A DNA stretch of 64,000 nucleotides from an uncultured Desulfobacterium sp. (GCA_900258555.1 LT984854.1:1905239-1969238), one strand, 5' to 3'. Shown: positions 4,844 through 47,842, counted from the first letter of the stretch. A program made the numbers and translations. The notes: generated from the sequence alone by a model not told the origin.

Positions 4844-4844
4844 A

Positions 4845-5141
4845 TCAATTTTTTCCAATACGTTCCGCCACGCGCCGTTCCAGTTCAAGGATTATGGAAT
4901 TCAGGGCAGGGCCCTCTTTTACAGGACCTGAGTTATTCCAACCGGCTGTTAGTGCGGAATCCTTTTTTTCTCTGAATTCATTAAGACTGGAGGCCATTGT
5001 CTCCCAAAGAAATAATTTTTGCAGGATATGCCGTTCCGCTGCAGTCAGATCGTTGTCCGTGTCAAATGATTTTCCGTTTTTAATTGTAAAGAGCATAATC
5101 GCGACAGCAATGAAGGTGTAGATCACAGAATATAATGACAT
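4845..5141 (-). CDS. small hypothetical membrane protein (98 aa)
   Basis: One N-terminal hydrophobic helix (LYSVIYTFIAVAIMLFTI). Its stop lies one nt before the kinase start. No family recognised. Confidence 0.4.
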   Translation of the reverse strand: MSLYSVIYTFIAVAIMLFTIKNGKSFDTDNDLTAAERHILQKLFLWETMASSLNEFREKKDSALTAGWNNSGPVKEGPALNSIILELERRVAERIGKN

Positions 5142-5164
5142 CCCTTTAAAAGGACGTCTGACAA

Positions 5165-5211
5165 TACAAAAAAGCCCGGAAGGTTGTCTGTTCTTCAGAC
5201 AACCTTCCGGG
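5165..5211 (-). terminator. rho-independent terminator after metF
   Basis: Perfect 16-bp stem (cccggaaggttgtctg / cagacaaccttccggg), 5-nt loop, then a U-run on the minus strand (A-run 5167-5173 on plus). Confidence 0.75.
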
Positions 5212-5391
5212 CGAGACTATAGACCGATAAGATCTTTTTTGGCAATTGAAATGTCGGAATACGATGGGTTTACACTGGGCTGGCATTGTCATTCCTCTGT
5301 CAGCTTGCAGCAGATACCACACGCTACGGGCAAGCCTGTTACCGGGGCCGGCTTTTACAGCCGACCCCTCCCACATTCCGTTTTGATGTTT

Positions 5392-6315
5392 TTAGACTAC
5401 GGGCCTTGGAAGGACTCCTGCCATCTTGGCAATTTCGGGCACCCTGTGTTCCCATTCTATGGCCATGAGATGAACGCCTGCCACCCCTTCCATCTCCTTA
5501 AACTCCTGGATCTGTTCCACAGCGATCTTGATGCCTTCCTCAGCAGCCTTCCCCTTTCCGGCACCCTTAACCCGTTCAATCAATTCGTCAGGGACATCCA
5601 TGCCCGGTACTGAGCCTGCCATGTATTTCGCCATACCGACACTCTTCAATGGTGTTACACCAGCCAGGATATAACACTTTTCTGTAAGGCCCATGTCCAC
5701 CGCCCTCTTCATAAACTCCCTGAACCTGTCCATATTGTAGATGCACTGGGTTTGAATAAAATCCGCACCCGCCGCTATCTTTTTTGCAAGCCTAAGCACC
5801 CTCCACTCATAAGGCTCGGCAAAGGGATTGGCGGCAGCGCCGATAAACATCTTTGGTGCCTCATCCAGTTTATTGCCGCTTAAAAAGATGCCCTCGTCAC
5901 GCATCTGCTTTACCATGCCTATCAGCTGTATAGAGTCTATGTCGAATACCGACTTTGCCATAGGGTGATCGCCAAAACTCTGATGGTCACCTGAAAGACA
6001 GAGCATATTCTTGATACCGTGGGTGCTTGCACCCAAGATATCGCTCTGCATGGCGAGCCTGTTACGATCGCGGCATACCATCTGGAAATTGGGCTCAAGC
6101 CCCTCCTGGATCAATATTAAAGAGGCGGCCCAGCTTGACATGCGGACCACTGCGGTTTGATTATCCGTGATGTTTACGGCATCAACATTACCCTTTAAAA
6201 AAGCGGCCTTTTTCCTCACCTCTTCTGCATTGGCTCCCCTGGGAGGACCCAGCTCGCCTGTAAATGCGAAGTGACCGGCGGACAATACCTTTTCCAGATT
6301 GCTTTCTGATTTCAT
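5392..6315 (-). CDS. metF: methylenetetrahydrofolate reductase, acetogen/Wood-Ljungdahl type
   Basis: 307 aa with typical MetF N-terminus (FAFTGELGPPRG..., NITDNQTAVVRMSS). GAGGAAG RBS upstream. Follows metV. Confidence 0.9.
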   Translation of the reverse strand: MKSESNLEKVLSAGHFAFTGELGPPRGANAEEVRKKAAFLKGNVDAVNITDNQTAVVRMSSWAASLILIQEGLEPNFQMVCRDRNRLAMQSDILGASTHGIKNMLCLSGDHQSFGDHPMAKSVFDIDSIQLIGMVKQMRDEGIFLSGNKLDEAPKMFIGAAANPFAEPYEWRVLRLAKKIAAGADFIQTQCIYNMDRFREFMKRAVDMGLTEKCYILAGVTPLKSVGMAKYMAGSVPGMDVPDELIERVKGAGKGKAAEEGIKIAVEQIQEFKEMEGVAGVHLMAIEWEHRVPEIAKMAGVLPRPVV

Positions 6316-6347
6316 TTTAACTTCCTCTCAGATGATAATGGCTGATC

Positions 6348-7028
6348 CTATTTTTCTGCACTATTCTCTGAAGTCTTATACCCCGGCTGGATAACCGTCC
6401 TTGGCTTCTGGTTTTGCCAATCCTGGACAGGGGTAATTTTCAATATGTTGTCAAGCCTGTTCTGTTTTGACAGACGTTCATAAATCATATACCAGGCACA
6501 GGGCTGATCTTTACTGATTTCACAACTGCCTTTGTTGGTTCCTCCGCACGGTCCGTTATAAAGGCCCTTGGCGCACATGGTCACAGGGCAGATGCCTGCG
6601 GTCAGCCCAAGCACGCAACTGCTGCATGATCGACACCTCTCCTCATACCAGCCTACGTCCTGATTGACGCCTATGAAGGTGGTGTCCACACCGGGGAACA
6701 CCGGCTTTTCCGGGTATCTTTCAGCCAGGAACTGGATGCCGGCGCCACAGGCCAGGGACAAAACCGCATCATAATCTCCCACCATTGAATCCAATGCCTC
6801 AAGGTATTCCCGGTCGCACTGCCTCTCAATGGTGATAGCGCCAAGTTCAATTGGGTTATCATCCAGCCTTCTTGCCATATCGAGCTCGGCGTTTAAAACA
6901 GCGACTTCCTTTTCACCTCCAGCAAGGCAAACCGCCACGCAGGTTCCGCAACCCGCAGTAAGAACCTTCTTATAGTCCTTCAGGAAATCTTTTATTTCAT
7001 CAAAGGGTTTTCTTTTGGCAACTATCAT
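6348..7028 (-). CDS. metV: methylene-THF reductase Cys-rich partner subunit
   Basis: 226 aa with Cys-rich motifs (GCGTCVAVC, CRSCSSCVLGLTAGICPVTMCAKGLYNGPCGG). Lies directly upstream of metF. Confidence 0.8.
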   Translation of the reverse strand: MIVAKRKPFDEIKDFLKDYKKVLTAGCGTCVAVCLAGGEKEVAVLNAELDMARRLDDNPIELGAITIERQCDREYLEALDSMVGDYDAVLSLACGAGIQFLAERYPEKPVFPGVDTTFIGVNQDVGWYEERCRSCSSCVLGLTAGICPVTMCAKGLYNGPCGGTNKGSCEISKDQPCAWYMIYERLSKQNRLDNILKITPVQDWQNQKPRTVIQPGYKTSENSAEK

Positions 7029-7075: not shown

Positions 7076-7489
7076 TTAATGTTGCTTCAAAGGATTTGGC
7101 CCGAGCGCCTTGATGTTTTCCGCCATCTCCCGCGCATAGGCTGCAAAGGTTGGGCCTTCACCGGAAGAAAGGTTATACATCCTTACCCTGTCTCCTTCAA
7201 TCCCTATTTCTTCAAGAAGCCTCCTGACGTGATTGACCCTTTCACGCGCCCTCAGGTTTCCTTCATTATAATGGCACGCCCCTTCCAGGCAGCCCACCGC
7301 ATAAACTCCATCCGCGCCCTTCTGGATAGCCCTTAAAAGATGCATCACATCAACCTTTCCTGTGCAAGGCACCCGGATTATCTTAATGTTGGAAGGATAG
7401 TCAAGTCGCATGGAACCTGCCAGGTCCGCGGCAGAGTATCCTCAGAATTCACAGCAAAATGCTATGATTGTCGGTTCAAAATCCGTCAT
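7076..7489 (-). CDS. mvhD: MvhD-like electron-transfer protein, selenoprotein (Sec at codon 16)
   Basis: ORF 7076..7411 extends in frame through TGA c(7442..7444) to ATG c(7487..7489): [32 protein letters not shown]... Its start overlaps the hdrA stop (TGATG). Later motif VGCLEGACHY. Confidence 0.8.
7417..7444 (-). promoter_or_regulatory. UGA(Sec) plus candidate SECIS hairpin of mvhD-1
   Basis: RNA UGA-GGAUACU-CUGCC-GCGGACCU-GGCAG. The 5-6-bp stem starts 7 nt after the UGA, closer than usual for a bacterial SECIS. Confidence 0.4.
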
Positions 7490-10400
7490 CACATACCCCC
7501 TGCCAGCAATGCATCAATTTTGCATGCCAGTTGATCATCTTCATAAAAGCTCAGTTTAATCGTCTGCCTTGGGCATATGCTTGCGCAGCTCCCACACCCG
7601 TGACACAATGCGTCATCAATCTCTATAATCCCCAACTCCGTGTTAAACATCGGGACACCGAAAGGACAGGTACGGACACATGTCAGACATTTTACGCAGT
7701 GTTCTGTATCCACCTTGGCTGTGATCGCCGATAGTTTTATCTCCGGCTTTGCGAGGAATGTCGTAGCCCTTGACGCAGCAGCCTGGGATTGGCTGATTGC
7801 CTCTGAGATAAGCTTGGGCCCATGCGCTGTTCCACACAGAAAGATTCCCTCGCCAGGCATGTCAACAGGCCGCAGCTTTACGTGCGCCTCAATAAAATAG
7901 CCCTCCTGGTTACGGTTTAGCTTCATGATGCCGCTTAGCTCGTCAGTATCCGCCGCCCTCATCCCAGCACTCAATGCCAGGAGGTCAGCTCGGATCGTAA
8001 TATCCCGTTGAAGTATATGATCCTTTACGGATACAAGTATTCCGGCGGCAGATGACTTAACATCCGGAGGCGCATCATTTTCAAATCTGATAAAGATAAC
8101 TCCCCTTTCCCTGGCCTCTTTGTAAAAATCCTCAAGCAATCCATATGTTCTAATATCCCGGTAGAGCACAAAGACCTGGGCGTCCGGATTTTGCCTCTTT
8201 ATATGTAAGGCGTTTTTTACGGCGTTCTGGCAGCATATGCGGGAGCATTCCTGCATCTCATCATTCCTGGACCCCACACACTGGATCATCACAACCGTTT
8301 TGAGGTCTGATGCGCCCTTGTCTTCCAACCTGTCCGCCAGTTCAACCTGGGTGACAACCCTGTCATCCTCGCCATAGAGATATTCTTTCGGGTGATATTC
8401 TGTCGCACCGGTAGCCACAATGATGACACCGTGTTTTATTGTACGCTTTTCTTTCTTCGATCCGATTTCCACATCGGTGGAAAAGTTGCCTTTATACCCA
8501 CCAAAACCAGTGACCCTGGCCTCGGTAATGACCTCCACCTTTTCATGGCCTTTAACCTGGCCGATCAGTTTATCCAGATATGGCCGGATGTCTCCGCCCT
8601 CAATGGTATGGTGCAGACTTCTTGAAAAGCCCCCCAGTTGGGCGTCTTTTTCCACCAGAACAACATCAAATCCCTGCTTTCCCAAGTTCAGCGCGGCGTT
8701 CATGCCTGCAACTCCGCCCCCTATCACCAGGGCCTTTTGTGTTACGGATATCACCTTTTGTGCAAGAGGTTTCAGTGTTCCGGCCCTAGCAACGGCCATT
8801 CTTACCAGGTCCTTGGCTTTTTGAGTGGCCAAATCCGGCGCCTTGGAATGTATCCAGGAGTTCTGGTTCCTGATATTGGCCATTTCGAACAGGTATCTGT
8901 TCAGGCCGCACGCCTCCAATGTTTCCATAAACATCGGTTCATGGGTCTTGGGACTGCATGAGGCGACCACCACACGATTAAGATTATGCTCTTTAATCTT
9001 TTCCTTTATTTTTTCCTGTGTGTCCTGGGAACAGGTAAACAGGTTTGAATCGGTAAATACAACATTTGGAAGTCTCCCAGCGTATTCCTGCACTGAAGGG
9101 ACATCAACAATTCCTCCTATGTTGATGCCGCAGTTACACACAAAGACACCGATCCTTGGTTCCTGATCACTTACATCCTTTTGTTCAGGGATTGTAACGG
9201 TCTTGGTCTCAGTTCCTCTCGCCTCTGAAAGATCAGCTCCTGCAAGACATGCTGCGGCACTGGCCTCTGTAACTGAGCCGGGTATGTCTTTCGGCCCCTG
9301 AAACACCCCGCATGTATATATACCAGGCCTGGATGTCTCAACAGGGGCGAACGGATCGGTTGCAGCAAAATTATAGTTGTTGAGTTCAACATTAAGTCTG
9401 TTTGCAAGCTCCACAGCACTGTCGGGTATTGTTAAACCAACTGACAAGACCACCATGGAAAAGATTTCTTCTTTTCTCTCGCCGCTTTCATCAACATATT
9501 TGACAATAAGGTCACCTGTCTCTGGGACTTCACTTACCGTATGGACACGGGCCTTGACATAACGTACACCTTCTTTGTCCCTCGCCCTGAGGAAATACTT
9601 TTCATAATCTTTGCCAAAGGTCCTCATATCCATGTTAAATATAACAGCGTCAAGATCTCCATGTATATGCTCCTTTGCAATCATCGCCTCTTTTGTGGCA
9701 TACATGCAGCATACGGAAGAGCAATAACCATTGCCGCATCTGTTGATATCCCTTGAGCCCACGCACTGAAGCCATGCAATACTCTTGGGCTCTTCCCTGT
9801 CAAGAGGCCGCATGACGTGACCGAAGTATGGGCCGCCCGCAGAAAGTATCCTTTCAAAGCCCTCACTGGTCACCACGTTGGGGAATTTTCCATAGCCCAG
9901 AAAATCAAGATTTGACGGATCATATCCTTTTGTTCCTGGAGAAAGGATAACAGAGCCCACTGTAACCTTTGTTTCCTCTTCCTTGTCGTCGTACTTGACC
10001 GCCTTTGCAAGACAGGTGTTTTCGCACAGGCCGCATCCGATACAGGCTTCGGTATCAATGGCATAGGCAAGGGGCACAGCCTGGGCATATTCAATATAGG
10101 TAGCCCTTCTGTCATTCATGCCCTTGTTGATCTCGTTGACAGCGGCCACAGGACAACGCCTGGCGCAGTCACCGCATCCGGTGCATTTTACCGGATCAAT
10201 GTAGCGGGGGTGTTTTGTGAGGGTGACGGAAAAATTTCCCGGCTCACCTTCAATGGATTTTACTTCACTGTTTGTTATCAGGTTTATGTTCAGATGCCGG
10301 CCGACCTCGACCAGTTTGGGTGAGATAACTCACATGGTGCAGTCATTGGTCGGAAATGTCTTGTCCAGCCTGGCCATCAGGCCGCCTATGGTAGGAGATT

Positions 10401-10518
10401 TTTCTACCAGATATACGTTGTAATCCGAATTAGCGAGATCCAGTGATGCCTGCATGCCGGCAATGCCGGCGCCGACAACCATTACTGACCCACTTTTATT
10501 TGTTGTAGCTGATCCCAT
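7489..10518 (-). CDS. hdrA: HdrA-like FAD/FeS oxidoreductase, selenoprotein, about 1009 aa
   Basis: ORFs 10330..10524 and 7489..10149 share a frame. Translation across TGA c(10330..10332) is stop-free: [21 protein letters not shown]...[12 protein letters not shown]...[10 protein letters not shown]. Two Rossmann motifs ([18 protein letters not shown]) and several 4Fe-4S Cys motifs. Start set at the ATG after the AGGGGAG RBS. Confidence 0.85.
10297..10332 (-). promoter_or_regulatory. UGA(Sec) plus candidate SECIS hairpin of hdrA-1
   Basis: RNA CUGGUCG-AGGU-CGGCCGG: 7-bp stem with 2 G-U pairs and a GG-containing loop, starting 15 nt after the UGA. The 21-nt core is identical to the one in hdrA-2. 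Confidence 0.6.
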
Positions 10519-10628
10519 TATCACTCCCCTAAATAATTGACGATATTTGATTGATTGATGATTTAAGATTTTTTCTCAGTCCGGGATCTTGCCTGTGTCA
10601 ATCAATGCGCATTCGTCATTCTTCAATC

Positions 10629-11378
10629 TTAAAGCGCTGCAAACACCGGTTTGCTGTCTTCCATGCCAGTGAATGCCACCATGCTTGTCCTTTCCATATC
10701 CGCTAGGAGGTAGGAAATCCGAAGTACATCTACCCCGGTTTTTTTACTTATTTGCCTCACGTTGGTGCAGTCCTGCTTAATAGCAAGATAAATCAAATTC
10801 TTGTGATATTCCCGTTCAAGCATGTCATAGAGAACGGATTCATACTTTTTAACTTCCCACTTCCTGCCGTAGACATCACCTTTGGTGGTGATTTTGACTT
10901 CTTTACCGACCAGCCATCGCAGGGTTTCACCCTCAAGGGTCCTTTCAGCCGCTGAAAGCTGCATATCAAACATCTCTGAATCGAACCTTCCCAGACTCTT
11001 AATGGAATCGTTGACTTCAGTCGCAATCTGTACAAAACGCTGCGCCTCAGCGGATGATACCCAGGCAAAATGGAGTCTTTCTCTGCCGATGCCTGCGATA
11101 TCTAGAAGCTTCTGTGTCAAAAGGAGCTTTTTTTCAGCCTGTACATTACCCTCCAGGTAATGGCAGTCGCCGAAATGTCACCCGCCCACCATGACGCCGT
11201 CACATCCACCTTTGAGAGCCTTGACAATGAAGACCGGGTCAATACGACCGGAACACATCACCCGGATTGTTCTAAGGCTGGATGGGTATTGCAACCTGGA
11301 GACTCCTGCCAGGTCAGCGCCTGCATATGCACACCAGTTGCAAAGAAAAGCAACAATCTTTGGTTCAAAATCTGTCAT
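10629..11378 (-). CDS. mvhD: MvhD-like protein with C-terminal extension, selenoprotein (Sec at codon 67), about 249 aa
   Basis: ORFs 11178..11378 and 10629..11120 are in frame across TGA c(11178..11180): ...DGVMVGG-U-HFGDCHYLEGNVQAEKKLLLTQKLLD... N-terminus MTDFEPKIVAFLCNWCAYAGADLAG. Confidence 0.8.
11144..11180 (-). promoter_or_regulatory. UGA(Sec) plus candidate SECIS hairpin of mvhD-2
   Basis: RNA CAUUACC-UGGAG-GGUAAUG: perfect 7-bp stem with a GG-containing loop, starting 15 nt after the UGA. Confidence 0.6.
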
Positions 11379-11426
11379 ATCTTATTCCTAATCATTATTA
11401 TGTTAACAGATCATACACAACTAAAC

Positions 11427-14400
11427 TCAGGCCACCGCACTTATAGCCGCTTCAATCTGAGCATGCCGGAAATGGAGCATGTCAATAGCTTTTTGCGGAC
11501 AGGATGAAGCGCACAAACCACATCCCTTGCAAGATGCAGGGATATTTTTAGCACGTTTTCCTTTGCCCTCAACTTCCTCCAACACTATAGCGCCGAATGA
11601 ACATATCTCAGCACAAAGACCACATCCGATGCATTTTTCCACATCCACACGTGATGCAAGGGGAGAGACCTGAATAGATGCCTTTGAAAGCACTGTTGCC
11701 GCCCTGCCTGCTGCGGCAAGGGCCTGTTCAATGCTTTCATCAACGGGTTTCGGATAGTGAGCCAGGCCGCACAGGAATATACCATCAGAGGCAAAATCAA
11801 CCGGCCTCAGTTTTGCGTGGGCCTCCATAAAAAATTTCTCTTCGTTCAGAGGAAGCTTATATGATGATGCAAGATGTTCATTCTCAGAGGGTTCAATAGC
11901 GGTCTTGAGGTTGATCATATCAGCCTTTATCAACAAATTCTGTTGAAGTATAGGATCAAACACTTCCACTACAAGACCTTTTGCACCTTCTGTTACCTTT
12001 GGTTTATTTTCCCGTGTATATCGGATAAAGATAACGCCTTTTTCACGGGCCTTTTTATAAAGGATTTCTCTCTCTCCAAAGGTTCTCATATCCCTGTAGA
12101 GAATAAATACGTTGGCCTCGGGTTTATCTTCCTTTATGGAGATTGCCTGCTGAACTGATGATGTGCAGCAGATCCTTGAGCAATATGGCCTTTGATCATC
12201 CCTTGATCCGACACATTGTATAAATACGATATTATCGGCCTTTTTAAGTTTGACCGGGTCTTTTTCGAGTTCATGCCAGAGTGTTACATTTGAATTTTTT
12301 CCATACAGATATTCATCTGTACCTGCGGCCTGGCCGCCTGTGGCGATAATGACCGCACCGTGTTTGACGGTTTTTGTGATATCTTTACTCCTTATTTCTG
12401 TCTCAAAATTGCCGACAAACCCGAAGGCATTAACAACTTCTGCATCCAATATCATGTCAATGCCCGGATGTTTTCTCACCCTGTCGGCCAGTTCGGCAAC
12501 AAACCCTTTGATATCCTCTCCACCCCAAGACCTTGAAAGGTCCTTAGCTGCACCTCCTGGTTCAGATGACTTATCTACAATTGTTACAGGAAAGCCCTGA
12601 TCTGCAAGACTGACGGCAGCCGTCATTCCGGCAACACCAGCTCCTATAACAAGCGCGGATTTGTTGACATCAACGGATAAATCCGGGATGGGCTCCAGCA
12701 GGGCAACGCGGGCAACCGCCATTCGCACCAAATCCTTGGCCTTTTCCGTTGCCTTTTCCTTTTCATCGGAATGACACCAGGTGCATTGGTTCCTGATGTT
12801 AGACATTTCGAACAGATAAGGATTTAGACCTGCATTACGAATGGTCTCCTGGAAAAGGGGCTCGTGTGTCCTCGGCGTACAAGCGGCCACGACAATACGA
12901 TTAAGATTATGTTCCTTGATCACCTCTACCATCTTTTCCTGGGTATCCTGGCTGCATGTAAATAGATTGTCCTCTACGTATACAACATCCGGCAGGTTTT
13001 TGGCATATGCGGCAATTGCAGGGACATCGGCAATACCGCCGATATTGACACCGCAGTTACATACAAAAACGCCCACACGGGGCTTTTGACCCTGAACATC
13101 ATTCTCCTGTGGAAATGCCTTTTCCTTAACCAGAGTTCCCCTGGCAGGTGCCAGACCGACGCCGGCGGAACAAGCCGCAGCACTTGCCTCCATTACAGAC
13201 TGGGGTATGTCTTTGCAGCCCTGGAGCACACCTGCCACATAAATGCCTTTACGAGATGTGGAAACAGGGGACAGACTGCTCGTATTGATAAAGTTATGCT
13301 CGTTAAGCTCAACATCCAGTCTTTTTGCCAAGTCAATGGCCGAGGAGGCCGGTTCCATACCGACAGAAAGAACAACCATATCGAACGTCTCGACTTGAAT
13401 ATTACCATTTTCATCTGCATACCTTAAGGAAACGTCCTTGTTTTCAGGGTCTTCGTCAATTGTATGAATTCTGCAACGGATAAACCTTACTCCCTGCTCC
13501 TTCTTTGCGCGTTCATAATACTTTTCAAAGTCCTTTCCGTGTGTCCGCATGTCCATAAAAAAGATAGCAGTATCCAGGTCATAATCTGCATGTTCTTTGG
13601 AGATAACCGCCTCTTTGATGGCATACATACAGCAGACAGAAGAACAATAAGCATTGTCGCACTGATTGATATCCCGCGATCCAATGCACTGCAGCCAGGC
13701 AATCTTTTTAGGCTCTTTCTTGTCGGATGGCCGCACAAGATGACCCTGGTTCGGGCCTGTTGCGCTCAAGAGGCGTTCATATTCCATGCTGGTGACAACA
13801 TTTGCAAATTTTGTATACTGGTATGTCGCAAAATTATCGGGCTTAAAAGGCTCAAAGCCGGGTGCCAATATCACGGAGCCCACATTGATTGAAATGTCCT
13901 CTGTTTTCTGGGAGTGTGTTTCAAGTGTCACTGCCTTGGCCTTGCAGGCCTTGACGCACTCGTAGCACTCACAACAACCACCGCAATTAAGACAGCGTTC
14001 GGCCTCTTCCTTTGCCGATTTTTCATCTGCTGTGAGGTTGACTTCCGCAAAGCTTTTATGCCTTTTGCCAAGGGACAGGGTCGGCGCCTTTAGGCGGTGT
14101 TTCAGTGGTTCATCATCACGGATTTCAACCCAATTTGTACCCATTGGGGGTTCATCCTGCCATTCTTGAGGTAACTGTTCACCCCGAAGGTATTTTGCAA
14201 TGTACTTGGCGGCCCTTTTACCTCCATCCACCGCCTCTATTACTGTAGCAGGCCCGGTAATAACATCACCACCTGCAAATATTCCAGGCGCATTAGTCTG
14301 CAATGTTTCAGGGTTTACTACGAGGAGTTTCCATTTAGAGACCTCTATACCTGATTGATCACCAATAAAGGCAAGATCCGGCTCCTGCCCTATGGCAGGA

Positions 14401-15857
14401 ATTATATGCTCCGCCTCTATTGTGAATTCGGAACCTTCTATGGGGATCGGTTTGCGCCTACCGCTGGTATCCGGTTCTGTCAAACGGGTTTTGATGCACT
14501 CAATGCCGGTCACCTTTCCATTTTTATTAACAACCCTTACAGGGGCCGCCAGAAAATGGATCTTTACCCCTTCTTTTTCCGCCTCTTCAATTTCCTCAGG
14601 TTCGGCCAGCATCTCTGCTTTAGAGCGGCGGTAAACGATATGAGACTCATCCGCACCCAGTCGAAGGGCTACTCGCGCACCGTCCAGGGCAGAATGGCCG
14701 CCACCAATAATCACGGCCTTTCCCTTGAGTTCTTTCAGGTCTCCAAGATGCACCTCCCGAAGAAAAGATGTAACATCACTGACACCCTTTGACTCATCTC
14801 CCTGAATGTGAAGTCTTAATCCCTTCCATGCGCCGGCTCCTATAAAAACGGCCTTTGCACCGTGTTGCTGCAAGTCCCTGATGGTAAGATCCTTGCCTAT
14901 GGCTGTATTGGTATGGATTTCTATGCCGTATCTTTTAAGGTTATTGATTTCCGCATCCAGCACAGAACGGGGCAGGCGATGTTCGGGAATTCCGTAACGC
15001 ATCATTCCGCCTGCCTCAGGCATCGCCTCATAAACGCTTACCTGATATCCCTCCAACGCAAGAAAATAGGCGGCGGTAAGTCCTGCCGGACCTGAGCCTA
15101 TTATCGCCACCTTTTCATCTTTTTTAATTATTTGTGGTACTGGTATGTCATTAAGGTCCGTATGATCAGCGGCAACCCGTTTAAGTTCTCTTATGGAAAT
15201 CGGCTCGTCTATTTCGAGACGGCGGCAACTCTTTTCGCAGGCATGGGGGCAGACACGGCCAAGGGTGCCGGGAAACGGCAGATCACGCATTATGATTTCA
15301 ATCGCCTCCCGAAATTTTCCCTGTTTCACCATCTGAACGTAGCCCTGGACATTCAGATTGGCCGGACAAGCCATTCTGCATGGCGCCGTGTCCCGTTTGT
15401 CAATAGCGAATGCTCCTGGAATAGCCTGTGCGTAAGGCTTATAGGCCGCCTTTCGCCCAACCAGTTCCATATCATATTCACTGGGCCTGACTACCGGGCA
15501 AACCTCTGCACAGTCCCCACAGGCAGTGCACGCTCCACTGTCTATAAAACGCGGTGCCTTTTGAATAGTTACTTGAAAGTTGCCCTCTTCCCCAGTAATA
15601 TTTTCAACGTTTGAGCAGGTGTGAAGTTGTATATTTGTATGCCGGCCGACCTCGACCAGCTTAGGAGAGATAATTCACATTGCACAGTCGTTTGTGGGAA
15701 AGGTCTTGTCAAGCTGCGACATCACCCCGCCGATGGCCGGAGATTTTTCTACCAGATGTACGAAAAAACCCGAATCAGCAAGATCAAGGGCCGCCTGCAT
15801 TCCGGCAATGCCGCCACCAACAACCATGACAGACCCGGTTGGTTTATCTTGAACCAT
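11427..15857 (-). CDS. hdrA: HdrA-like oxidoreductase with inserted GltD/NfnB-like NAD(P)H module, selenoprotein, about 1476 aa
   Basis: ORFs 15675..15884 and 11427..15470 are in frame across TGA c(15675..15677): [21 protein letters not shown]...CTACGDCAEVCP...MELVGRK. GltD-type motifs: CPANLNVQGY, GRVCPHACEKSCRR, IIGSGPAGLTAAYFLA, IIGGGHSALDGA, IFAGGDV. HdrA motifs then resume. Start at the ATG after the CAGGAGA RBS; c15884 is the alternative. Confidence 0.85.
15642..15677 (-). promoter_or_regulatory. UGA(Sec) plus candidate SECIS hairpin of hdrA-2
   Basis: Same CUGGUCG-AGGU-CGGCCGG hairpin, 15 nt after the UGA. Synonymous differences from hdrA-1 stop exactly where the hairpin begins. Confidence 0.6.
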
Positions 15858-16208
15858 ATGTATTGTCTCCTGCTTGTAAGGCATTTAAATTTTAAGAGGA
15901 ATTATTTTCCGTTATGAGATCGAAATGGCAAAAAACCATTGGATGAAAACACGGGCGGGTAATTTTGACTCACATGAGGCATCTTTCCCCTACATCCTCT
16001 TTTCGGCCGTATTACATGCCATAATAAATACTTGGATGTCAAGGAAAAATATGAAAAGAAGAAGATACAGGAATAAATGACCCATTCCAAGTATGAGTAT
16101 TAAGTCCAATTTTCCCCTTTAATTATCCGAGGAAGTCTATAACTGACTCCCCACTATCTACAGTTACCATGACATGCATAATAATTTACTGATATTATTA
16201 GGCAATAA

Positions 16209-16751
16209 TCACATCATTTTGATTTTCCATTTCAGTACTTCAAGGCAGGTTGAACAAAGGGTTGGTTGCTTGAAGTCAGTATGTTCTATCTTTGTTGAAG
16301 CAAACATTATGCAACGTGGGTTTCTGCAATGGGTCAGACCAAAGGAGTGCCCAAGTTCATGGATTGCAGTCTTTCCAATCCGCGACATAAGTAGATCTGA
16401 GTCCGGCGGCTCGCCATACAATGCAGGATCAAGCCTATAAGTTGAAATCAAAGAACATCTCCCATCCAACTGGGATAAGCCGTACACATATTTTAAAATG
16501 GGTACAAACAGGTCCAAGGCAGTTACTCCCATAAATCCAAGGTTGTGGGGAGGGCATTGTTTTATCATCTGCTTTAAAATCATTTTTGAATCATACTGGA
16601 ATCTTCGATCATCGTAAGCATATCGAGGGGTTTCCATCGGAGGGTAGATTTCACAATTGATCCCACACCGCTCCTCAACACAAGCCATCAATCTGTCAAT
16701 TATATCTGAGGCTATAATGCCGATCGGGCAAATGAAAACACATTTGGACAA
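16209..16751 (-). CDS. amzA: archaemetzincin-type zinc metallopeptidase
   Basis: HELGHSFGLTHCRNPRCIM...CSTC closely matches the archaemetzincin signature HExxHxxGx3Cx4CxM...CxxC. 180 aa. Confidence 0.8.
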   Translation of the reverse strand: MSKCVFICPIGIIASDIIDRLMACVEERCGINCEIYPPMETPRYAYDDRRFQYDSKMILKQMIKQCPPHNLGFMGVTALDLFVPILKYVYGLSQLDGRCSLISTYRLDPALYGEPPDSDLLMSRIGKTAIHELGHSFGLTHCRNPRCIMFASTKIEHTDFKQPTLCSTCLEVLKWKIKMM

Positions 16752-16756
16752 AGGAT

Positions 16757-18106
16757 TTATGCTTCTCCTTTTTTGATTTCATACTTTTCAATCTTGTTAT
16801 AAAGCGTCTGTCGGTCAATATCCAATTTCCGGGCTGCCCGACTGATATTCCAATCACAATCATTCAAGATGTTTAAGATATGCATTTTTTCCATCAGCTT
16901 TAATGAGTCGGGAAATGCCCGAGGTGCAGGTTTCTGATGTGAAAAGGGAAGATCATCGGGCAAAATCTCCTGGCCCCTGCCGATGACCAAGGCCCTTTCA
17001 ATGATATTCTCAAGCTCCCTCACATTACCAGGCCAGTCATAATCCATTAATAAGTTCAGAGCAGACGGGGCAATTTTTGATGTTTCCCGATTCATCTCCA
17101 GGCAATACTTGCGGATAAATGCCTTTACCAGTAAAGGGATGTCTTCTTTTCTTTCTCTTAAAGGAGGGATATGTATAGAAATAACATTCAGGCGATAATA
17201 GAGGTCCTCACGAAAACGATTTTCTCGAATTGCCTTTAAGAGATCCCTATTTGTCGCAGCAATTACCCTTACATCCACCTTGATCGTGGCCTCTCCGCCC
17301 AACCGGGCGAATTCCTTTTGTTGCAAGACCCGTAAAAGATCCACTTGTGTCTTTAGACTGATATCACCGATCTCATCCAGAAAGATGGTGCCCTTATCAG
17401 CCATTTCAAAACGTCCTCGTTTTGCATGATCAGCCCCTGTAAAAGCCCCCTTTTCGTATCCGAACAGCTCGCTTTCCAGGAGGGAATCAGGCAATGCGCC
17501 GCAACTGACTGCAACGAAGGGCATATAACAACGGCTGCTGTTCCCATGAATGGCCTGGGCCACCAGTTCTTTGCCTGTGCCGCTCTCCCCTGTGATAAGC
17601 ACTGTCGAATCTGTAGGCGCCACACGGCCTATCAAATCGAAGATCTCCTGCATAGCGTCACTTTTCCCAATAATTTCATCAAACTGATATTTCTCTTCCA
17701 GCTTTTTTCTCAGCAGCAGGTTCTCCATTACCAATTCTTTATGCTCAACTATCTTTTTGATATGGATTTCTATTTCATCAGGATCAAAGGGTTTTACCAG
17801 ATAATCGAAGGCTCCTTCCTTCATTGCCAGGACAGCAGTATCTACGGTAGCATAGGCTGTCATTATAATGATTTCAGACTCAGGACTTACGGACCTGAGT
17901 TTCATAAGCGCCTCAAGACCATCCATCCCGGGCATTTTTAGGTCGAGAAAAATCACATCAAAGGCCTTTTCAAGGGCCATGGCAACGGCCCTTTCCCCGC
18001 TTGGTGCCACAGCAACAGCATAACCGTCCTCCATTAACCAATCCTTCAGACTTTCCCGCATGGCCGCTTCATCGTCAACAACTAGAATTGAGGGTTTTTG
18101 TGCCAT
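16757..18106 (-). CDS. sigma54-dependent response regulator
   Basis: REC (ILVVDDE, FLDLKMPGMDG), AAA+ core (GESGTGKE, GAFTGA, FREDLYYRL), C-terminal HTH. Confidence 0.9.
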   Translation of the reverse strand: MAQKPSILVVDDEAAMRESLKDWLMEDGYAVAVAPSGERAVAMALEKAFDVIFLDLKMPGMDGLEALMKLRSVSPESEIIIMTAYATVDTAVLAMKEGAFDYLVKPFDPDEIEIHIKKIVEHKELVMENLLLRKKLEEKYQFDEIIGKSDAMQEIFDLIGRVAPTDSTVLITGESGTGKELVAQAIHGNSSRCYMPFVAVSCGALPDSLLESELFGYEKGAFTGADHAKRGRFEMADKGTIFLDEIGDISLKTQVDLLRVLQQKEFARLGGEATIKVDVRVIAATNRDLLKAIRENRFREDLYYRLNVISIHIPPLRERKEDIPLLVKAFIRKYCLEMNRETSKIAPSALNLLMDYDWPGNVRELENIIERALVIGRGQEILPDDLPFSHQKPAPRAFPDSLKLMEKMHILNILNDCDWNISRAARKLDIDRQTLYNKIEKYEIKKGEA

Positions 18107-18131
18107 CAGTTATTCCTCCGCTTCTTCAAAA

Positions 18132-20594
18132 TTATGCTACAGGCAATCTTATCCTAAATGAAGTGCCTTTTCCTATTTCGCTTTCGACGTCAATCGAACC
18201 ATTATGTCTGGTTATTATTCCGAAGACTACAGAAAGACCAAGCCCGACACCCTTTCCTTCCTCCTTGGTTGTAAAAAACGGTTCGAATATGTGTTTGATC
18301 TCTTCATCAGGTATGCCGCACCCTGTATCGGAAATTAGGATTTCAACAAAGCCATTATTCCCCGGATACCCGGCTGATACAGTAATGGTGCCGCCTTTCT
18401 CCATGGCCTCGGAAGCGTTAACTATAAGATTCAAAAGCGCCTGTTGAATCTGTTTGAAATCGCATAGAATTTCAGGTAAATTCGGGGCCATTTCCTTTTT
18501 CACATGCGTATTTTTAATCTCAAGGTCATGGGTGATCAGTAAAAGGGTTCGGTCAATAATTTCGGTAATGCTGTGGGATTTAATATCAACTTTTGAATGA
18601 CGGGCAAAGGCCAGAAGGTTTTTCACAATTTCCCCGCATCTGGTTACTTCCGATTCCATTGTCCCAAGATATCTTTTTACGTCTTCGCTCCTTTCCTGGC
18701 TAAAGAAGAGGCCCCTCTCAACAAGCTTTATCATCAACTTTATATATGTCAAAACCGCAGCCAAGGGATTATTTATTTCATGCGCAATGGTGGCGGATAA
18801 TTTACCTAAAGAAGCAAGCTTCTCCGTCTGAATAACTTGTTCCTGGATGGCCTTTAACTGCTCATAGGCGCGCTTGCTCTTTTCAAACAAGTTTGCATTG
18901 TCTACAGCAACTCCCAATTGATTGCCGACCACAGTCAGAAATTCTACGTGATATGATGAGAATTTGTATTCAGAATGGGTTGATACGCTCATTACACCAA
19001 GTGATTTGCTTTTGGATACGAGCGGGATGTAGACGGTGGATTTGAGGCCTTCTTTTTTAAGAGTTTCAACATAGGGGTCATTTGAATGCAAAAAATCATC
19101 CACAATAATCGTCCTTCCGGTAAGCACAGTCTGTCCCACATGACCATCACCTATCCTTCTGGATCGCATGAAATCCTGTGAAAAGAAATCTTTTGAAAAT
19201 CCCTTATGGGCTGCCAGGTTAAGCTGCTTTTCATCTTCAGCCAGCAGATAGATCCTGACACTGTCCGGCTCCATGATTTCAGGTATCTCCAACATCTTGT
19301 CAATACTGGAGTAAAGGATTTCGTGTAGGTCTAGGCTGGTGCTGACGGCCATTGATATGGCCTTTAGGATCGCAAGCCGGATATTTCGTATCTGGATCTG
19401 CTTCTGTGCCATTTTTCTGGTGGTTATGTCCTTTATAATTATTACATATCCCGTAAGTTGTCCTCCCTCATTAAGGGTGACATTGGAGGTGATCAGTGCC
19501 TCGAATGCCTTGCCGTTATTTCCCATCAGTCTGGTCTCAAATTCCTTGACATAGCCGTCTGTGGTAATGCTTTTTTGTAAGTCATAAAAGGATTTTTTGT
19601 CCTCAAGAAGTTCTGAGGCCGACTTAAGCGCCAAAAGTTCAGTCTTGTTATCGTAACCGAACATCTCAACCCCTGCCTGGTTTATTTCGAGAATCTTGCC
19701 ATTGGAATCCACCAACATGATTGCATCGCTGGAACGTTCAAATATAGTCCTATATTTTTTTTCCGATTCCTGCAACTCTCTCAAGCGTTGGGCCAAAAAC
19801 CCTTCCATCCTGCCTGTAACCCCGCTTAGATCAGCCTGAAGGAGTTTCTTTTTTGTTATGTCAGTAGCTGTTTCAAGGACATAGATAATTTTGCCCTTCT
19901 GGTTTGTTACAGGAGTAGAGCGGACGAGCATGCGGGCGATTGAACCGTCATCCATCACAACATCTTCTTCCTTTGTATGTGATTTTCCATCACGAAATGA
20001 TTTTTCAACAAGGCAGTTGCTGCATTTTTTTTCTCTTTTTTTCCATATGCTAAAGCACGGGGCATCGGAAAAGGATCCGAATCTTTTCTTGAAGAGATCA
20101 TTTGCCATGATGATCTGGTAATTTCTGTTAACCCCCACAACATAGTCGGTGACACTCTGCAGAAGCGCCTGATAACTAGCCTCGGCCTCTCTGTATATTT
20201 CCTCCTCTCTCAGGATTTTTTGATAGGCCTGCACTATCTTGACCAGGAGATGCTCCATTTGCACAGGCTTGCCCAGATAATCAAAGGCCCCCTGTTTAAT
20301 GCCGTTAACGCCGTCCTCTGTTGTTGCATAGCCCGTAAGGAGCAAGACCTCAGTCTTCAGAGATTTCTTCTTCACATAATCGAGGACCTCAAAGCCGTCC
20401 ATACCAGGCATTTTGATGTCCAGAATCAAAACATCAATCTTTTCCCTGTTGAGAATAGAAATACACTCTTCCCCGCTTCCAGCCTGTTGACAAACAATGC
20501 CTCTTTTCTTGAATGCCCTGGCAAGACCTTGACGAAATGGCTCTTCGTCATCAACTAAAAGGAGTCTTAAGTCTTTTAGATTTATTGGCGTCAT
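18132..20594 (-). CDS. hybrid sensor kinase (REC-PAS-PAS-GAF-HisKA-HATPase)
   Basis: ORF 18132..20642. Start moved to the ATG preceded by AAAGGAG (MTPINLKDLRLLLVDDEE). H-box IAHEINNPL. HATPase DTGCGIP, GVGLGLSV. Confidence 0.85.
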   Translation of the reverse strand: MTPINLKDLRLLLVDDEEPFRQGLARAFKKRGIVCQQAGSGEECISILNREKIDVLILDIKMPGMDGFEVLDYVKKKSLKTEVLLLTGYATTEDGVNGIKQGAFDYLGKPVQMEHLLVKIVQAYQKILREEEIYREAEASYQALLQSVTDYVVGVNRNYQIIMANDLFKKRFGSFSDAPCFSIWKKREKKCSNCLVEKSFRDGKSHTKEEDVVMDDGSIARMLVRSTPVTNQKGKIIYVLETATDITKKKLLQADLSGVTGRMEGFLAQRLRELQESEKKYRTIFERSSDAIMLVDSNGKILEINQAGVEMFGYDNKTELLALKSASELLEDKKSFYDLQKSITTDGYVKEFETRLMGNNGKAFEALITSNVTLNEGGQLTGYVIIIKDITTRKMAQKQIQIRNIRLAILKAISMAVSTSLDLHEILYSSIDKMLEIPEIMEPDSVRIYLLAEDEKQLNLAAHKGFSKDFFSQDFMRSRRIGDGHVGQTVLTGRTIIVDDFLHSNDPYVETLKKEGLKSTVYIPLVSKSKSLGVMSVSTHSEYKFSSYHVEFLTVVGNQLGVAVDNANLFEKSKRAYEQLKAIQEQVIQTEKLASLGKLSATIAHEINNPLAAVLTYIKLMIKLVERGLFFSQERSEDVKRYLGTMESEVTRCGEIVKNLLAFARHSKVDIKSHSITEIIDRTLLLITHDLEIKNTHVKKEMAPNLPEILCDFKQIQQALLNLIVNASEAMEKGGTITVSAGYPGNNGFVEILISDTGCGIPDEEIKHIFEPFFTTKEEGKGVGLGLSVVFGIITRHNGSIDVESEIGKGTSFRIRLPVA

Positions 20595-20877
20595 TCTTTC
20601 TCCTTTAAACCGGTGAAGCACTAATTGACTTTCAAAACGCACCCCGAAAATTCCGGATTCTTAACCCACTAATATAAGCCGGATTGATTTTAAAGATTTT
20701 TTGGTTTTTTGCAAGGAAGGTTTCTTATCGAATACCACGAGGCCAGAGAGGGTTGATAACAAGAAACATATTAAAGAGGCAAGCGTGCCGGGGTCAACAA
20801 ATCCGATTAGGTCGCAAACGTGAACCGGCTTTTGATATGGTGCTTTAAGCAGGAACTATAAGACTTGATTCTATTTT

Positions 20878-21804
20878 TTATGTCCTGAGAAATACTTTTG
20901 CGAGTCTCCCCCATTCCAATTGAGGCATGTTTCCGAATATATCATCACCGAAGAAACCCCCGTCTGTTGTCATTGGACCAGCCACTTCTTCAATTTCTCG
21001 ACAAAGCAGATCAACCTGTTTGTCCATGAATGCGCTGCTTTCATTATGTATCATCAGATTTTTCATATCCATACGCAGGCTGTCAGGCCGGACCATCATG
21101 ACCCATCCCTCGGAGTAAGGATTCCTGTTGGCAAGGCACCCATCCTCCCTCAGAGTTGAATTGATTGAGGTGACTATCCCGCTTACGGGTGAGAGCATTC
21201 TAGCAGTGTTTTTTCCACGTGCAATTGAGATATCTCCCCTGCCCTGCCTTATTTCCCTGCCGACCAACGGTGCCTCAATTTTATCAAGCGGGCCAAGCAG
21301 GCGCAGGGCGAAATCATCTATCCCTATCCTTACAGAGGAGCTTTCCTCTATTTTCATCCAGGTATGACCCTGGTGGAAATAATAGCCCTGAGGGATCTTA
21401 AAGCCCTTAACGTCAAGGACATCAACAGGCCTAACCACGGCATGCACTGAGTACTGATCATCAAAGAACTGATCAAAGTCACAACTGCCGCAGCGATATT
21501 CCATGTGGCACAACCGGAATTCTATCCGGCCTTTCATGTGATGGATGCACGGCCTCTTGGATAAAGGCCTGGCCAGAAGCCTCTCCTTCCACGATACGAT
21601 CCTCCCCCTTTTTCCAAAGGGAATAATGCCGGAGCGTTTCAGCGAAATGTTTTCTTCAGCCAGGTTATTCATCACCCTGTCATAACGGCATCTCGGGCAG
21701 TTATAGTCCTCATGGCACAACTTATGATCCACAACACCGGCCTGCATCCATATACAAGGCTGGTATTGCCGTTTAAGACGATTTTCAGAACCGGTTGTTT
21801 GCAT
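20878..21804 (-). CDS. Cys-rich protein with C-terminal GcvH-like (lipoyl/biotinyl-fold) domain
   Basis: Two N-terminal Cys motifs (CIWMQAGVVDHKLCHEDYNCPRCRYD; CIHHMKGRIEFRLCHMEYRCGSCDFDQFF). GcvH-like C-terminus (GHTWMKIE..., SPVSGIVTSIN, NPYSEGW). Confidence 0.75.
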   Translation of the reverse strand: MQTTGSENRLKRQYQPCIWMQAGVVDHKLCHEDYNCPRCRYDRVMNNLAEENISLKRSGIIPFGKRGRIVSWKERLLARPLSKRPCIHHMKGRIEFRLCHMEYRCGSCDFDQFFDDQYSVHAVVRPVDVLDVKGFKIPQGYYFHQGHTWMKIEESSSVRIGIDDFALRLLGPLDKIEAPLVGREIRQGRGDISIARGKNTARMLSPVSGIVTSINSTLREDGCLANRNPYSEGWVMMVRPDSLRMDMKNLMIHNESSAFMDKQVDLLCREIEEVAGPMTTDGGFFGDDIFGNMPQLEWGRLAKVFLRT

Positions 21805-21889
21805 TTTTAAGCCTTACCTCTCTTGGAAGTTGTTAATGTCCCTGAGCTATGAGCAGTTAGCCTTCAACAAAAGATCCTAAAATAAATTA

Positions 21890-22873: not shown

Positions 22874-23259
22874 TTTATGCCTCCCTTTCATGAGTTGTGC
22901 CGTGTTTTGTTTATGATTATACAAGAGCACAGAACATGCCACCAGAGGAGATTTTTATTGAGCGTATCAATAACAATTTGATATAATTATTTAATTAAGT
23001 TATTTTTACAATGTGGTCAGATTTGCGAAAGGAAAAACATACAGAAGAGATTCAATTAAAATGTAGCGATATTATGCTATAGATATCCCCTTATACCGTT
23101 CTAACCCAAAAATGTACTATTTTTTCAGAATGTTAGAGGCATGCCGTTTTTTTAAACAACATTGTTGTTTAATGCAACACAGCCCGGCAATAAAAAAAGT
23201 GTACTTCTGCCGGCACGTCAGCGTGGTGAGCACAGTTAAATTATGACATTCGCAATCGT

Positions 23260-45089: not shown

Positions 45090-45161
45090 GCGTCTTAAAT
45101 AAATCTAATGCCATATAACGATTGAAAGCTATCAATCGCAGAAACACAAGGGAGAGTCAAA

Positions 45162-46482: not shown

Positions 46483-46484
46483 CA

Positions 46485-47835: not shown

Positions 47836-47842
47836 GGCCAAT

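Follow-up and report, generated by a model that had tools for sequence, protein, structure and literature searches.

We analysed a 64,000-nucleotide stretch of DNA from an uncultured Desulfobacterium sp. (GCA_900258555.1 LT984854.1:1905239-1969238), referred to here as the window, in which the gene hdrL encodes a large HdrA-like protein interrupted by a predicted NfnB/GltD-type module for [4Fe-4S] clusters, flavin adenine dinucleotide (FAD) and NAD(P)H. The cofactor-binding motifs of this protein form an unbroken series that starts at the NAD(P)H/FAD site, takes in four [4Fe-4S] sites and ends in the HdrA core, and the gene is clustered with mvhD and metVF; this much is firmly supported. We propose that HdrL is the port through which NADP(H) connects with an HdrA-based oxidoreductase, probably coupled to ferredoxin, that acts on methylene- and methyl-tetrahydrofolate (THF), a reading to which we assign a probability of about 0.55. 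Coordinates are positions in the window, hdrL lies on the minus strand, and amino acid (aa) numbers follow its 1485-codon frame.

Reading frame and selenocysteine codon of hdrL

Translation of the hdrL region gave one frame whose sole interruption is a TGA at codon 70. The start codon is probably the second ATG, at 15857, because AGGAG lies 9 nt 5′ of it, and the product would then have 1476 aa rather than 1485. A first-pass annotation of this DNA had described one joined gene of 1476-1485 aa in three parts (HdrA, a GltD/NfnB-type module, HdrA); the gene holds as a single frame with one TGA, every motif quoted was found at its expected place, and we regard this anatomy as close to certain. The parts of the gene are listed below, with the insert-less paralogue hdrA-1 for comparison.

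11427..15884, minus: hdrL, single coding sequence of 1485 codons plus stop with one selenocysteine (Sec) codon, from translation
15387..15857, minus: HdrA unit A, first part, with FAD Rossmann fold, Sec motif and inserted-ferredoxin Cys motif 1 (C119, C122, C125, C129)
15675..15677, minus: in-frame TGA read as Sec (aa 70), homologous to Cys197 of M. wolfeii HdrA
15641..15660, minus: hairpin resembling a selenocysteine insertion sequence (SECIS), GCUGGUCGAGGUCGGCCGGC, beginning 15 nt after the UGA; −16.8 kcal/mol, z = −2.5
14160..15386, minus: module core, aa 167-575, from Pfam, PDB sequence matches and fold matches
13977..14159, minus: linker (aa 576-593) and displaced NfnB 'N-terminal' segment (aa 594-636, ending C631-x2-C634)
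13080..13976, minus: HdrA unit A, resumed, with ferredoxin Cys motif 2, the remaining thioredoxin-reductase-like domain and CxGSRDx6CSSVCC
11430..13079, minus: HdrA unit B, with HdrA N-terminal FeS domain, second FAD domain and C-terminal 2x[4Fe-4S] ferredoxin domain
7489..10518, minus: hdrA-1, insert-less tandem HdrA of 1009 codons with a Sec TGA at 10330-10332

The motifs of HdrL stand at these positions.

aa 19-29: FAD Rossmann fold
aa 62-75: Sec motif NDCAM-U-IISPK
aa 119-130: CTACGDCAEVCP
aa 167-174: APCRMACP
aa 209-222: GRVCPHACEKSCRR
aa 258-269: KVAIIGSGPAGL, FAD Rossmann fold of the module
aa 390-404: AVIIGGGHSALDGAR, NAD(P)H Rossmann fold of the module
aa 534-541: GIFAGGDV
aa 730-754: WLQCIGSRD...CSSVCCMY
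aa 1077-1087: second HdrA Rossmann fold, ALVIGAGVAGM
aa 1418-1463: C-terminal 2x[4Fe-4S]

Among the 120 best homologues, ten full-length proteins (1471-1513 aa) have Cys at the position of the TGA (FPTNDC(S/A)M-C-I(L/M)SP), and the paralogue has a TGA at the homologous codon. The hairpin that follows the hdrL TGA recurs after the TGA of hdrA-1, and that of the longer mvhD gene likewise precedes a hairpin (z = −2.25); because these hairpins overlap conserved codons, they are suggestive. Both marks of a bacterial selenoprotein, a UGA at the Cys position of homologues and a SECIS hairpin, are thus present, the hairpin being the weaker. Neither sel genes nor a tRNA-Sec were found in the 64-kb window. 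From the Cys-type full-length homologues, the TGA of the paralogue and the hairpin common to both genes, we read the hdrL TGA as a Sec/Cys site and not as a gene boundary.

The position of this residue can be placed on a solved structure. In the alignment to M. wolfeii HdrA (5odc_A), chain residues correspond to paralogue residues plus 134, so that U63 of the paralogue, and hence Sec70 of HdrL, correspond to Cys197. In M. wolfeii HdrA, the [4Fe-4S] cluster of one protomer's N-terminal domain receives Cys197 as a ligand from the other protomer (PMC9012536).

We rejected, as having a next to negligible probability, an artefact in which hdrL is two adjoining genes (a 69-aa fragment and the 1347-aa protein of the NCBI annotation) or a pseudogene disrupted by a stop: although the public annotation begins the protein at an internal Met 3′ of the TGA, the 69 upstream codons encode an indispensable FAD Rossmann fold that is 62% identical to the paralogue, the Cys-type full-length homologues are collinear through the site, TGA recurs at the same codon of the paralogue and at Cys positions of both mvhD genes, and SECIS-like hairpins are found.

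The database entries themselves show a common pattern. Of the 120 closest proteins, the remaining 110 are called from an internal Met shortly 3′ of the Sec site and lack the N-terminal FAD Rossmann fold; the NCBI entry of hdrL (SPD75721.1, identical from Met139 onward and annotated as 1347 aa) is one of them. This family-wide truncation looks like a systematic annotation error, and because most entries are affected, domain-based surveys miss the N-terminal FAD domain.

Identity and insertion point of the NfnB/GltD-type module

BLASTP aligned HdrL with the paralogue in two blocks (aa 16-171 with 9-164, 62% identity; aa 627-1484 with 155-1004, 50% identity), and the gap between them leaves an additional segment of ∼470 aa (aa 167-636, window 13977-15386). 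The first-pass annotation had the identity of the insert right, and also the statement that hdrA-1 has the same scaffold without it, which both Pfam and BLASTP bear out; its estimate of ∼400 aa at 14180-15392 needed correction. The alignment places the insertion point between the two Cys motifs of the inserted-ferredoxin domain of HdrA.

A domain search, proposed at the outset as a check on the fusion, found Fer4_20 (PF14691; aa 166-243) and, in complete form, Pyr_redox_2 (aa 258-555) beside HdrA-type FAD and ferredoxin signatures; Fer4_20 was not found by Pfam in the paralogue. The insert matched the large subunits of NfnABC/StnABC complexes best (9bov_A, E = 3.5e-131; 9n5u_A, 4e-126; 8oh5_C, 1e-116), followed by NfnI-L (5jca_L, 5.5e-96), NfnB (4ylf_B, 1.3e-93) and GltD (4e-62). 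Its core holds five [4Fe-4S] cysteines (C169, C173, C212, C216, C220), the FAD and NAD(P)H Rossmann folds at aa 258-269 and 390-404, and YRRS at aa 418-421. Structure prediction, the second check proposed, gave the same answer: an AlphaFold2 model of aa 71-760 (predicted template modelling score 0.80; predicted local distance difference test, pLDDT, mostly 85-97 across aa 161-670) superposed on NfnB/NfnI-L with TMt 0.78-0.81 and a root-mean-square deviation of 2.5-3.0 Å, and on NfnABC/StnC over more aligned columns (∼500-530 vs ∼430 for NfnB).

Since Pfam, PDB sequence matches and the superposition agree, the insert is identified as a predicted NfnB/GltD-type [4Fe-4S]/FAD/NAD(P)H module. It has the Fer4_20 domain and both Rossmann folds expected of that family, with seven conserved Cys, and HdrL combines in one polypeptide the HdrA FAD domain, the CxGSRDx(6-8)CSxxCC motif and the GltD/NfnB-type module by which the HdrL type is recognised.

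The cysteines named here for ferredoxin, module and junction are all invariant in the 120 homologues, and likewise in a sub-alignment, and a single-unit relative (P0121) has the same junction, RCLNC-GV-CSECMACVQAC. By alignment, C631-x2-C634 together with C169-x3-C173 would form the first NfnB-type motif and C212, C216 and C220 the second, and C119/C122/C125/C129 and C637/C640/C643/C647 would be the two halves of the HdrA ferredoxin domain. The assignment of ligands to clusters is an inference, as it was made by alignment alone.

Segment order of the module

In NfnB and GltD, the segment ending in '...RCLxC' is N-terminal; in HdrL it lies C-terminal of the core. HMMER aligned NfnI-L residues 49-473 to HdrL aa 166-569, and residues 5-45 separately to aa 594-634 (LKHRLKAPTLSLGKRHKSFAEVNLTADEKSAKEEAERCLNC; conditional E = 3e-7), so that the segment which opens NfnB and GltD, including the first two Cys of cluster motif 1, stands behind the core in HdrL. 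We then moved aa 590-636 ahead of aa 167-580, using an unrelated 47-aa sequence in front as the control. The Pfam Fer4_20 score rose from 80.9 bits (profile 30-109) in the native order to 100.2 (2-109) after de-permutation, compared with 67.7 (26-109) for the control. TIGR01316 rose from 364.7 bits (37-449) to 384.2 (4-449) and TIGR01318 from 292.1 to 313.6, both scored on the native and de-permuted orders.

The native order fits the PRK12771, PRK12814 and YgfK models and the NfnABC/StnC structures better (PRK12771, 502.7 bits over profile 42-534). Linker and displaced segment are predicted to be ordered, as pLDDT is 83-96 across them. We conclude from these profile comparisons that the module is circularly permuted relative to NfnB and GltD and that its segments stand in the order seen in the NADP(H) arm of the large subunits of NfnABC/StnABC.

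Nucleotide preference

The second Rossmann fold of the module ends in HIVYRRSKAEM, and alignments show YRR(S/T) to be common to HdrL, NfnB, NfnI-L and StnC. In the NfnB/GltD-type family, the arginines of YRR bind the 2′-phosphate of NADPH, and the motif would favour NADPH over NADH as the substrate of HdrL. In L004 (8593-21397), an HdrL paralogue (P0112) adjoins a CCG-domain protein, a tandem hdrA and fdhBA. In P0112, which belongs to the HdrL clade beside a CCG-domain protein and FdhAB, HMVDPFS replaces IVYRRSK at the end of β2, which suggests a different or lost NADPH specificity.

HdrA scaffold

Three segments of the paralogue map to M. wolfeii HdrA: aa 36-368 to 5odc_A 170-501 (FAD domain with inserted ferredoxin), aa 452-624 to 2-174 (N-terminal domain and beginning of the second FAD domain) and aa 857-1004 to 500-649 (C-terminal ferredoxin). 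Because these segments map as two units, the products of hdrL and hdrA-1 are both fused pairs of HdrA units, a 'heterodimer' in one chain. Unit A of HdrL, whose first part aligns with 5odc_A from residue 170 on, has the Cys197 equivalent (as Sec) and the inserted ferredoxin, with C637-x2-C640-x2-C643-x3-C647 as Cys motif 2 and an additional invariant C638, and has neither an N-terminal nor a C-terminal domain. Unit B has both of these domains, and its second FAD domain has neither the Cys197 equivalent nor an inserted ferredoxin. All four domains of canonical HdrA and Cys197 are thus present but divided between the two fused units. The canonical partners HdrB and HdrC (CCG) were absent from the scanned open reading frames (ORFs) of the 64-kb window, and may lie elsewhere in the genome.

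The six-gene unit

On the minus strand, the genes hdrL, mvhD (long), hdrA-1, mvhD (short), metV and metF follow one another and end at a terminator-like hairpin. Besides hdrL and hdrA-1, the unit comprises the following features.

10629..11378, minus: mvhD, long form, 249 aa, in-frame TGA at 11178-11180, C-terminal extension of ∼115 aa
7076..7489, minus: mvhD, short form, 137 aa, TGA at 7442-7444 at a Cys position of the long form
6348..7028, minus: metV (PF12225, E = 1.3e-35)
5392..6315, minus: metF, acetogen/MetFV type (PF02219, E = 2.7e-39)
5174..5212, minus: intrinsic-terminator-like hairpin, 17-bp stem and T run, closing the unit

An mvhD gene directly downstream is itself a trait of HdrL, and the start of the short mvhD overlaps the hdrA-1 stop by one base. 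The window MetF scored only 82.6 bits against TIGR00676 (NAD(P)H-type MetF; cut-off 293.7), and since it is far below NAD(P)H-type cut-offs and MetV is present, we assign it to the MetFV type of methylene-THF reductase (MTHFR), which needs a separate subunit for electron input (PMC8515935). The cluster has the metF, metV, mvhD and hdrA genes of a Moorella-type MTHFR and lacks its hdrB and hdrC; no gene for CCG/HdrB, HdrC, NfnA or Dsr proteins, nor for a partner of the NfnA (FAD/[2Fe-2S]) or GltB kind, was among the window ORFs scanned.

Both mvhD genes, besides hdrL and hdrA-1, have an in-frame TGA, and the unit would therefore encode four putative selenoproteins. Each mvhD TGA pairs with a Cys in the other copy (AFCCEF-U-GY vs AFLCNW-C-AY; VGG-U-HFGDCHY vs AVG-C-LEGACHY). 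The C-terminal extension of the long MvhD (10629-10976, ∼115 aa) had no Pfam match; tblastn matches that reach it occur in five inspected loci (L006, L008, L009, L013, L052), all with a second hdrA downstream.

Upstream of hdrL (16209-22942, minus) lie an archaemetzincin-like gene, a sigma-54 response regulator, a PAS/GAF histidine kinase and two GcvH-like proteins (308 and 350 aa, with Cys-rich N-terminal halves and no obvious lipoyl-lysine motif), a set that also occurs near hdrL in other genomes in varying order and orientation. No sigma-54 promoter (TGGCAC-N5-TTGCW, ≤2 mismatches) was found in 15885-16208, and the total in the window equals chance; because there is no such site upstream of hdrL, we do not tie the neighbouring regulator to the operon. 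Rfam found only a tRNA in the whole window, and no known RNA element near the operon; a tRNA-Ser(CGA) lies at 57771-57866 (minus). A housekeeping block at 44238-51052 (plus; rpsB, tsf, pyrH, uppS, cdsA, dxr and an rseP-like gene, by Pfam) indicates that the window is chromosomal.

Distribution and synteny

A profile-free search with aa 100-760 of HdrL against 1.84 billion cluster representatives gave, among the best 150, ∼52 clusters (50% identity) that span both junctions. They fall into length groups of ∼1470-1530 aa (tandem HdrL), ∼1110-1140 aa (a single canonical HdrA with the insert) and ∼800-920 aa; single-unit forms of ∼1130 aa occur in bacteria as well. Many representatives of ∼1070-1320 aa (P0150, P0161, P0170, P0178, P0185, P0198 and others) match only aa 101-680 of HdrL, that is, ferredoxin motif 1, insert and linker without the resumed HdrA part, and these proteins may represent another architecture built on the same cassette.

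The spread of the fusion among Desulfobacterota, which the first-pass annotation had named as a question for survey, proved to extend well beyond that phylum. A scan of GTDB species genomes, in which one of the two search patterns was insert-specific, returned 595 confirmed candidates. We surveyed the loci of the best 80; with a single exception, these cover query aa 1/2-661. The carriers include many Desulfobacterota, SAR324, Nitrospinaceae, Aminicenantes, Acidobacteriota, Zixibacteria and Anaerolineae, Bacillota including Symbiobacterium thermophilum, and the archaeal names Bathyarchaeota and Hodarchaeota. Cys-type HdrL is found in cultured species of the Desulfotomaculum group, Pelotomaculum and Sporotomaculum.

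An mvhD gene directly follows hdrL in 65 of the 80 loci. Of the 57 loci that offer 2.8 kb or more of downstream sequence, 27 have metV and metF there, 24 of them right after mvhD and three after an additional hdrA-mvhD pair or a spacer. The order hdrL-mvhD-metV-metF occurs in Desulfobacterota, Bacillota, Aminicenantes, Nitrospinaceae and others, and hdrB and hdrC were also unseen in the four-gene clusters inspected in other genomes; hdrL-mvhD-metV-metF without hdrBC is thus a cluster conserved in many phyla. The six-gene layout of the window recurs in L009 (Desulfococcaceae HSG8) and L052. Together with the same-strand six-gene unit, this recurrent synteny supports the functional link to MTHFR that had been suggested for the window. 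In other loci, the neighbours of HdrL are a CCG-domain protein and FdhAB. In 22 of the 80 loci (at 8810-9664 in L028, and in 21 others) a distant MetF-like gene, absent from the window, lies directly 5′ of hdrL; it has <45% identity to the window MetF (33-35% in inspected loci) and often occurs besides a downstream metV-metF.

One groundwater deltaproteobacterial contig (L028) carries two divergent hdrL-mvhD-metV-metF clusters (191-6884, minus; 8810-16290, plus). On it, an insert-bearing HdrL stands directly 5′ of orthologues of the short mvhD, metV and metF of the window (82%, 74% and 79% identity). The C-terminal half of the scaffold of this HdrL is closer to the insert-less hdrA-1 of the window than to hdrL (72% vs 47%), which suggests that the cassette was gained or lost within one lineage.

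Proposed function

We suggest that HdrL, MvhD (with its [2Fe-2S] cluster) and MetV/MetF would form a cytoplasmic complex without HdrBC that links NADP(H) to methylene-/methyl-THF; in the uncultured Desulfobacterium sp., the second, insert-less tandem HdrA and the second MvhD would also be part of it. The chain derived from the alignments and the solved M. wolfeii HdrA would connect NADP(H), the module FAD, two NfnB-type [4Fe-4S] clusters (ligands C631, C634, C169 and C220 for one; C173, C212, C216 and one more for the other), two ferredoxin-type clusters (C119, C122, C125, C129 and C637, C640, C643, C647), the N-terminal-domain cluster of HdrA, which would have Sec70 among its ligands, and the HdrA FAD, in this order. 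Input of NADH or NADPH through an HdrL-type module has been proposed before (PMC2702500, PMC9012536). Ferredoxin would most likely be the third partner, coupled at the HdrA flavin:

2 NADPH + CH2-THF + Fd(ox) <-> 2 NADP+ + CH3-THF + Fd(red)

For a sulfate reducer that is a complete oxidiser, the direction would be confurcating, with methyl-THF being oxidised; thermodynamics makes coupling to ferredoxin the most sensible reading for such an organism. The idea in the first-pass annotation of NAD(P)H wired into a bifurcating or confurcating HdrA unit is thus reasonable and is supported in part. Taken separately, we consider the link between NAD(P)H and MTHFR to be reasonably probable, and ferredoxin-coupled bifurcation to fall somewhat short of even odds.

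We considered whether HdrL is instead a linear NAD(P)H:methylene-THF oxidoreductase, a single FeS/flavin wire to MetF that involves neither ferredoxin nor energy coupling. The sequence itself displays only a continuous cofactor chain between the NAD(P)H site and MvhD/MetVF, and the MetFV-RnfC2 complex of A. woodii is a precedent for an NADH-dependent, non-bifurcating enzyme (PMC8515935). However, it would be excessive for a simple wire to retain two FAD domains of the HdrA type along with a Sec-ligated cluster and a C-terminal ferredoxin domain, and in the oxidative direction taken by complete oxidisers the transfer of electrons from methyl-THF (−200 mV) to NAD(P)+ (−320 mV) is endergonic unless coupled to an exergonic reaction (PMC6295475). 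We therefore regard a linear enzyme as unlikely.

It is quite improbable, in our estimate, that the NfnB-like FAD itself bifurcates, in which case HdrL would either bifurcate at two successive sites or be an HdrA body topped by an Nfn-like transhydrogenase head. The module is 39-41% identical to NfnB/NfnI-L, whose FAD bifurcates, and Chadwick et al. raised this possibility for the ANME-1 fusions (PMC9012536). Against it, no NfnA-like partner (FAD and [2Fe-2S]) is encoded among the scanned window ORFs, and the closest proteins in sequence, segment order and fold are NfnABC/StnC and the PRK12771 type, not NfnB. In the NfnABC/StnC complexes, the GltD-like module is regarded as the NADP(H) site and not as the bifurcating centre.

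A further explanation is that HdrL serves mainly the reduction of sulfite/DsrC or of another acceptor, the adjacency of metVF being regulatory or incidental. HdrL1 of D. autotrophicum adjoins dsrABC (PMC2702500), S. fumaroxidans forms HdrABC/HdrL only with sulfate (PMC5947623), and 30 of the 57 assessable loci have no metVF downstream. Yet neither a CCG/HdrB-type nor a Dsr gene is among the scanned window ORFs, the six genes lie close together before one terminator, and the direct order hdrL-mvhD-metV-metF recurs across phyla; we give this explanation a low probability.

Several points weigh against the ferredoxin-coupled NADP(H) port that we prefer. In M. wolfeii HdrA, the inserted ferredoxin domain is the low-potential arm to ferredoxin via the Cys197-ligated cluster (PMC9012536), which puts the module where ferredoxin would dock. 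If port roles are conserved, it would therefore sit on the ferredoxin-exit arm and not at the port of a mid-potential donor, and NADP(H) would be at the low-potential outlet; otherwise NADPH could be the bifurcated donor. No ferredoxin-docking site could be identified in the HdrL sequence, the cluster ligands are assigned by alignment, and our proposal leaves the role of the second HdrA/MvhD pair unexplained. In about half of the loci, hdrL stands beside other genes, such as those for FdhAB and a CCG-domain protein, or dsr genes (PMC2702500), from which the module would appear to be general-purpose, with MTHFR as one client among others. Finally, we found no report on HdrL biochemistry in the literature.

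A bolder extension, which we hold to be rather doubtful, is that HdrL-MvhD-MetVF without HdrBC is a distinct and widespread type of MTHFR in which the permuted NADP(H) cassette replaces free ferredoxin on the Sec-ligated low-potential arm. If so, port roles would differ from those of methanogen Hdr, the complex would be the missing energy-coupling device for endergonic oxidation of methyl-THF in complete-oxidising sulfate reducers and syntrophic acetate oxidisers, and the insert-less HdrA copy would have been added in the Desulfobacterium lineage to provide a second half that faces ferredoxin. The electron partners of MetFV-type MTHFR are a point yet to be settled in Wood-Ljungdahl pathway energetics, in acetogens and, in reverse, in sulfate reducers and syntrophic acetate oxidisers. 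A four-gene unit with a candidate NADP(H) port and an HdrA bifurcation core offers a concrete complex to purify, with a predicted cofactor chain that can be mutated.

Comparison with known systems

The product of hdrL is assigned to the HdrL type by the architecture described in PMC2702500. Strittmatter et al. 2009 described HdrL of Desulfobacterium autotrophicum as a 'heterodisulfide reductase/glutamate synthase fusion' that contains selenocysteine, has mvhD next to it and is a possible entry point for NADH (PMC2702500). The likeness is close: a big HdrA-like protein with an NAD(P)H/FAD module, Sec, mvhD as the next gene, possibly a tandem hdrL/hdrA locus, and an origin in complete-oxidising Desulfobacteraceae. 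HdrL was then held to be unique to D. autotrophicum (PMC2702500), whereas our cluster and GTDB searches find it widespread; it has since been named in the proteomics of Syntrophobacter fumaroxidans (PMC5947623) and in Desulfurivibrio dismutans (PMC12142623).

In ANME-1, Chadwick et al. 2022 described an NfnB-like insertion of ∼500 aa in the inserted ferredoxin domain of HdrA9/10/11 and discussed NADPH and a link to MetF for these fusions (PMC9012536). HdrL shares with them the insertion that breaks the inserted ferredoxin domain. The ANME-1 proteins are single-unit as described, in contrast to hdrL, which encodes a two-unit fusion, is bacterial and has metVF in the same operon.

The MetFV-HdrABC-MvhD complex of Moorella thermoacetica (Mock et al. 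2014), as outlined in PMC5861303 and PMC8515935, contains an HdrA with an NADH site and two FAD and is proposed to bifurcate, with a second acceptor that these accounts do not identify. MetF, MetV, MvhD and an HdrA-borne NAD(P)H site are common to both systems; the Moorella complex, on the same accounts, has HdrB/HdrC and NADH as the donor, whereas the hdrL cluster has neither hdrB nor hdrC, and the motif of HdrL predicts NADPH. No Moorella entry was among the best 120 of homology searches seeded with the single-unit form or a Bacillota HdrL, which contained many proteins of the Desulfotomaculum group.

For the module alone, the best matches in sequence and fold are the large subunits NfnA/StnC of NfnABC/StnABC (9bov, 9n5u, 8oh5) and the PRK12771/PRK12814/YgfK type. 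They share with HdrL the order of a flavoprotein core, then '...F-x-EV...RCLxC', then an additional Cys motif; in them a formate-dehydrogenase-like or other domain is the fusion partner of the module, which works with NuoE/F-like subunits, whereas in HdrL it is embedded in HdrA. NfnB/NfnI-L (4ylf_B, 5jca_L) and GltD share the two [4Fe-4S] clusters, FAD and the NADPH domain, but they differ in their permuted segment order and in having NfnA or GltB as partner, which the hdrL window does not encode.

Because the protein type was already in the literature, from 2009 for HdrL and from 2022 for the insertion in ANME-1, the novelty implied by the first-pass annotation does not stand, and our result confirms and refines what had been described and is not a discovery. 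The permutation, the wiring and the metVF link are not described in the HdrL literature consulted. What this analysis adds is the permutation and the exact splice, the correspondence of Sec to Cys197, the frequency of hdrL-mvhD-metVF clusters without HdrBC, the apparent gain or loss of the cassette, and the truncation of database entries at the Sec codon.

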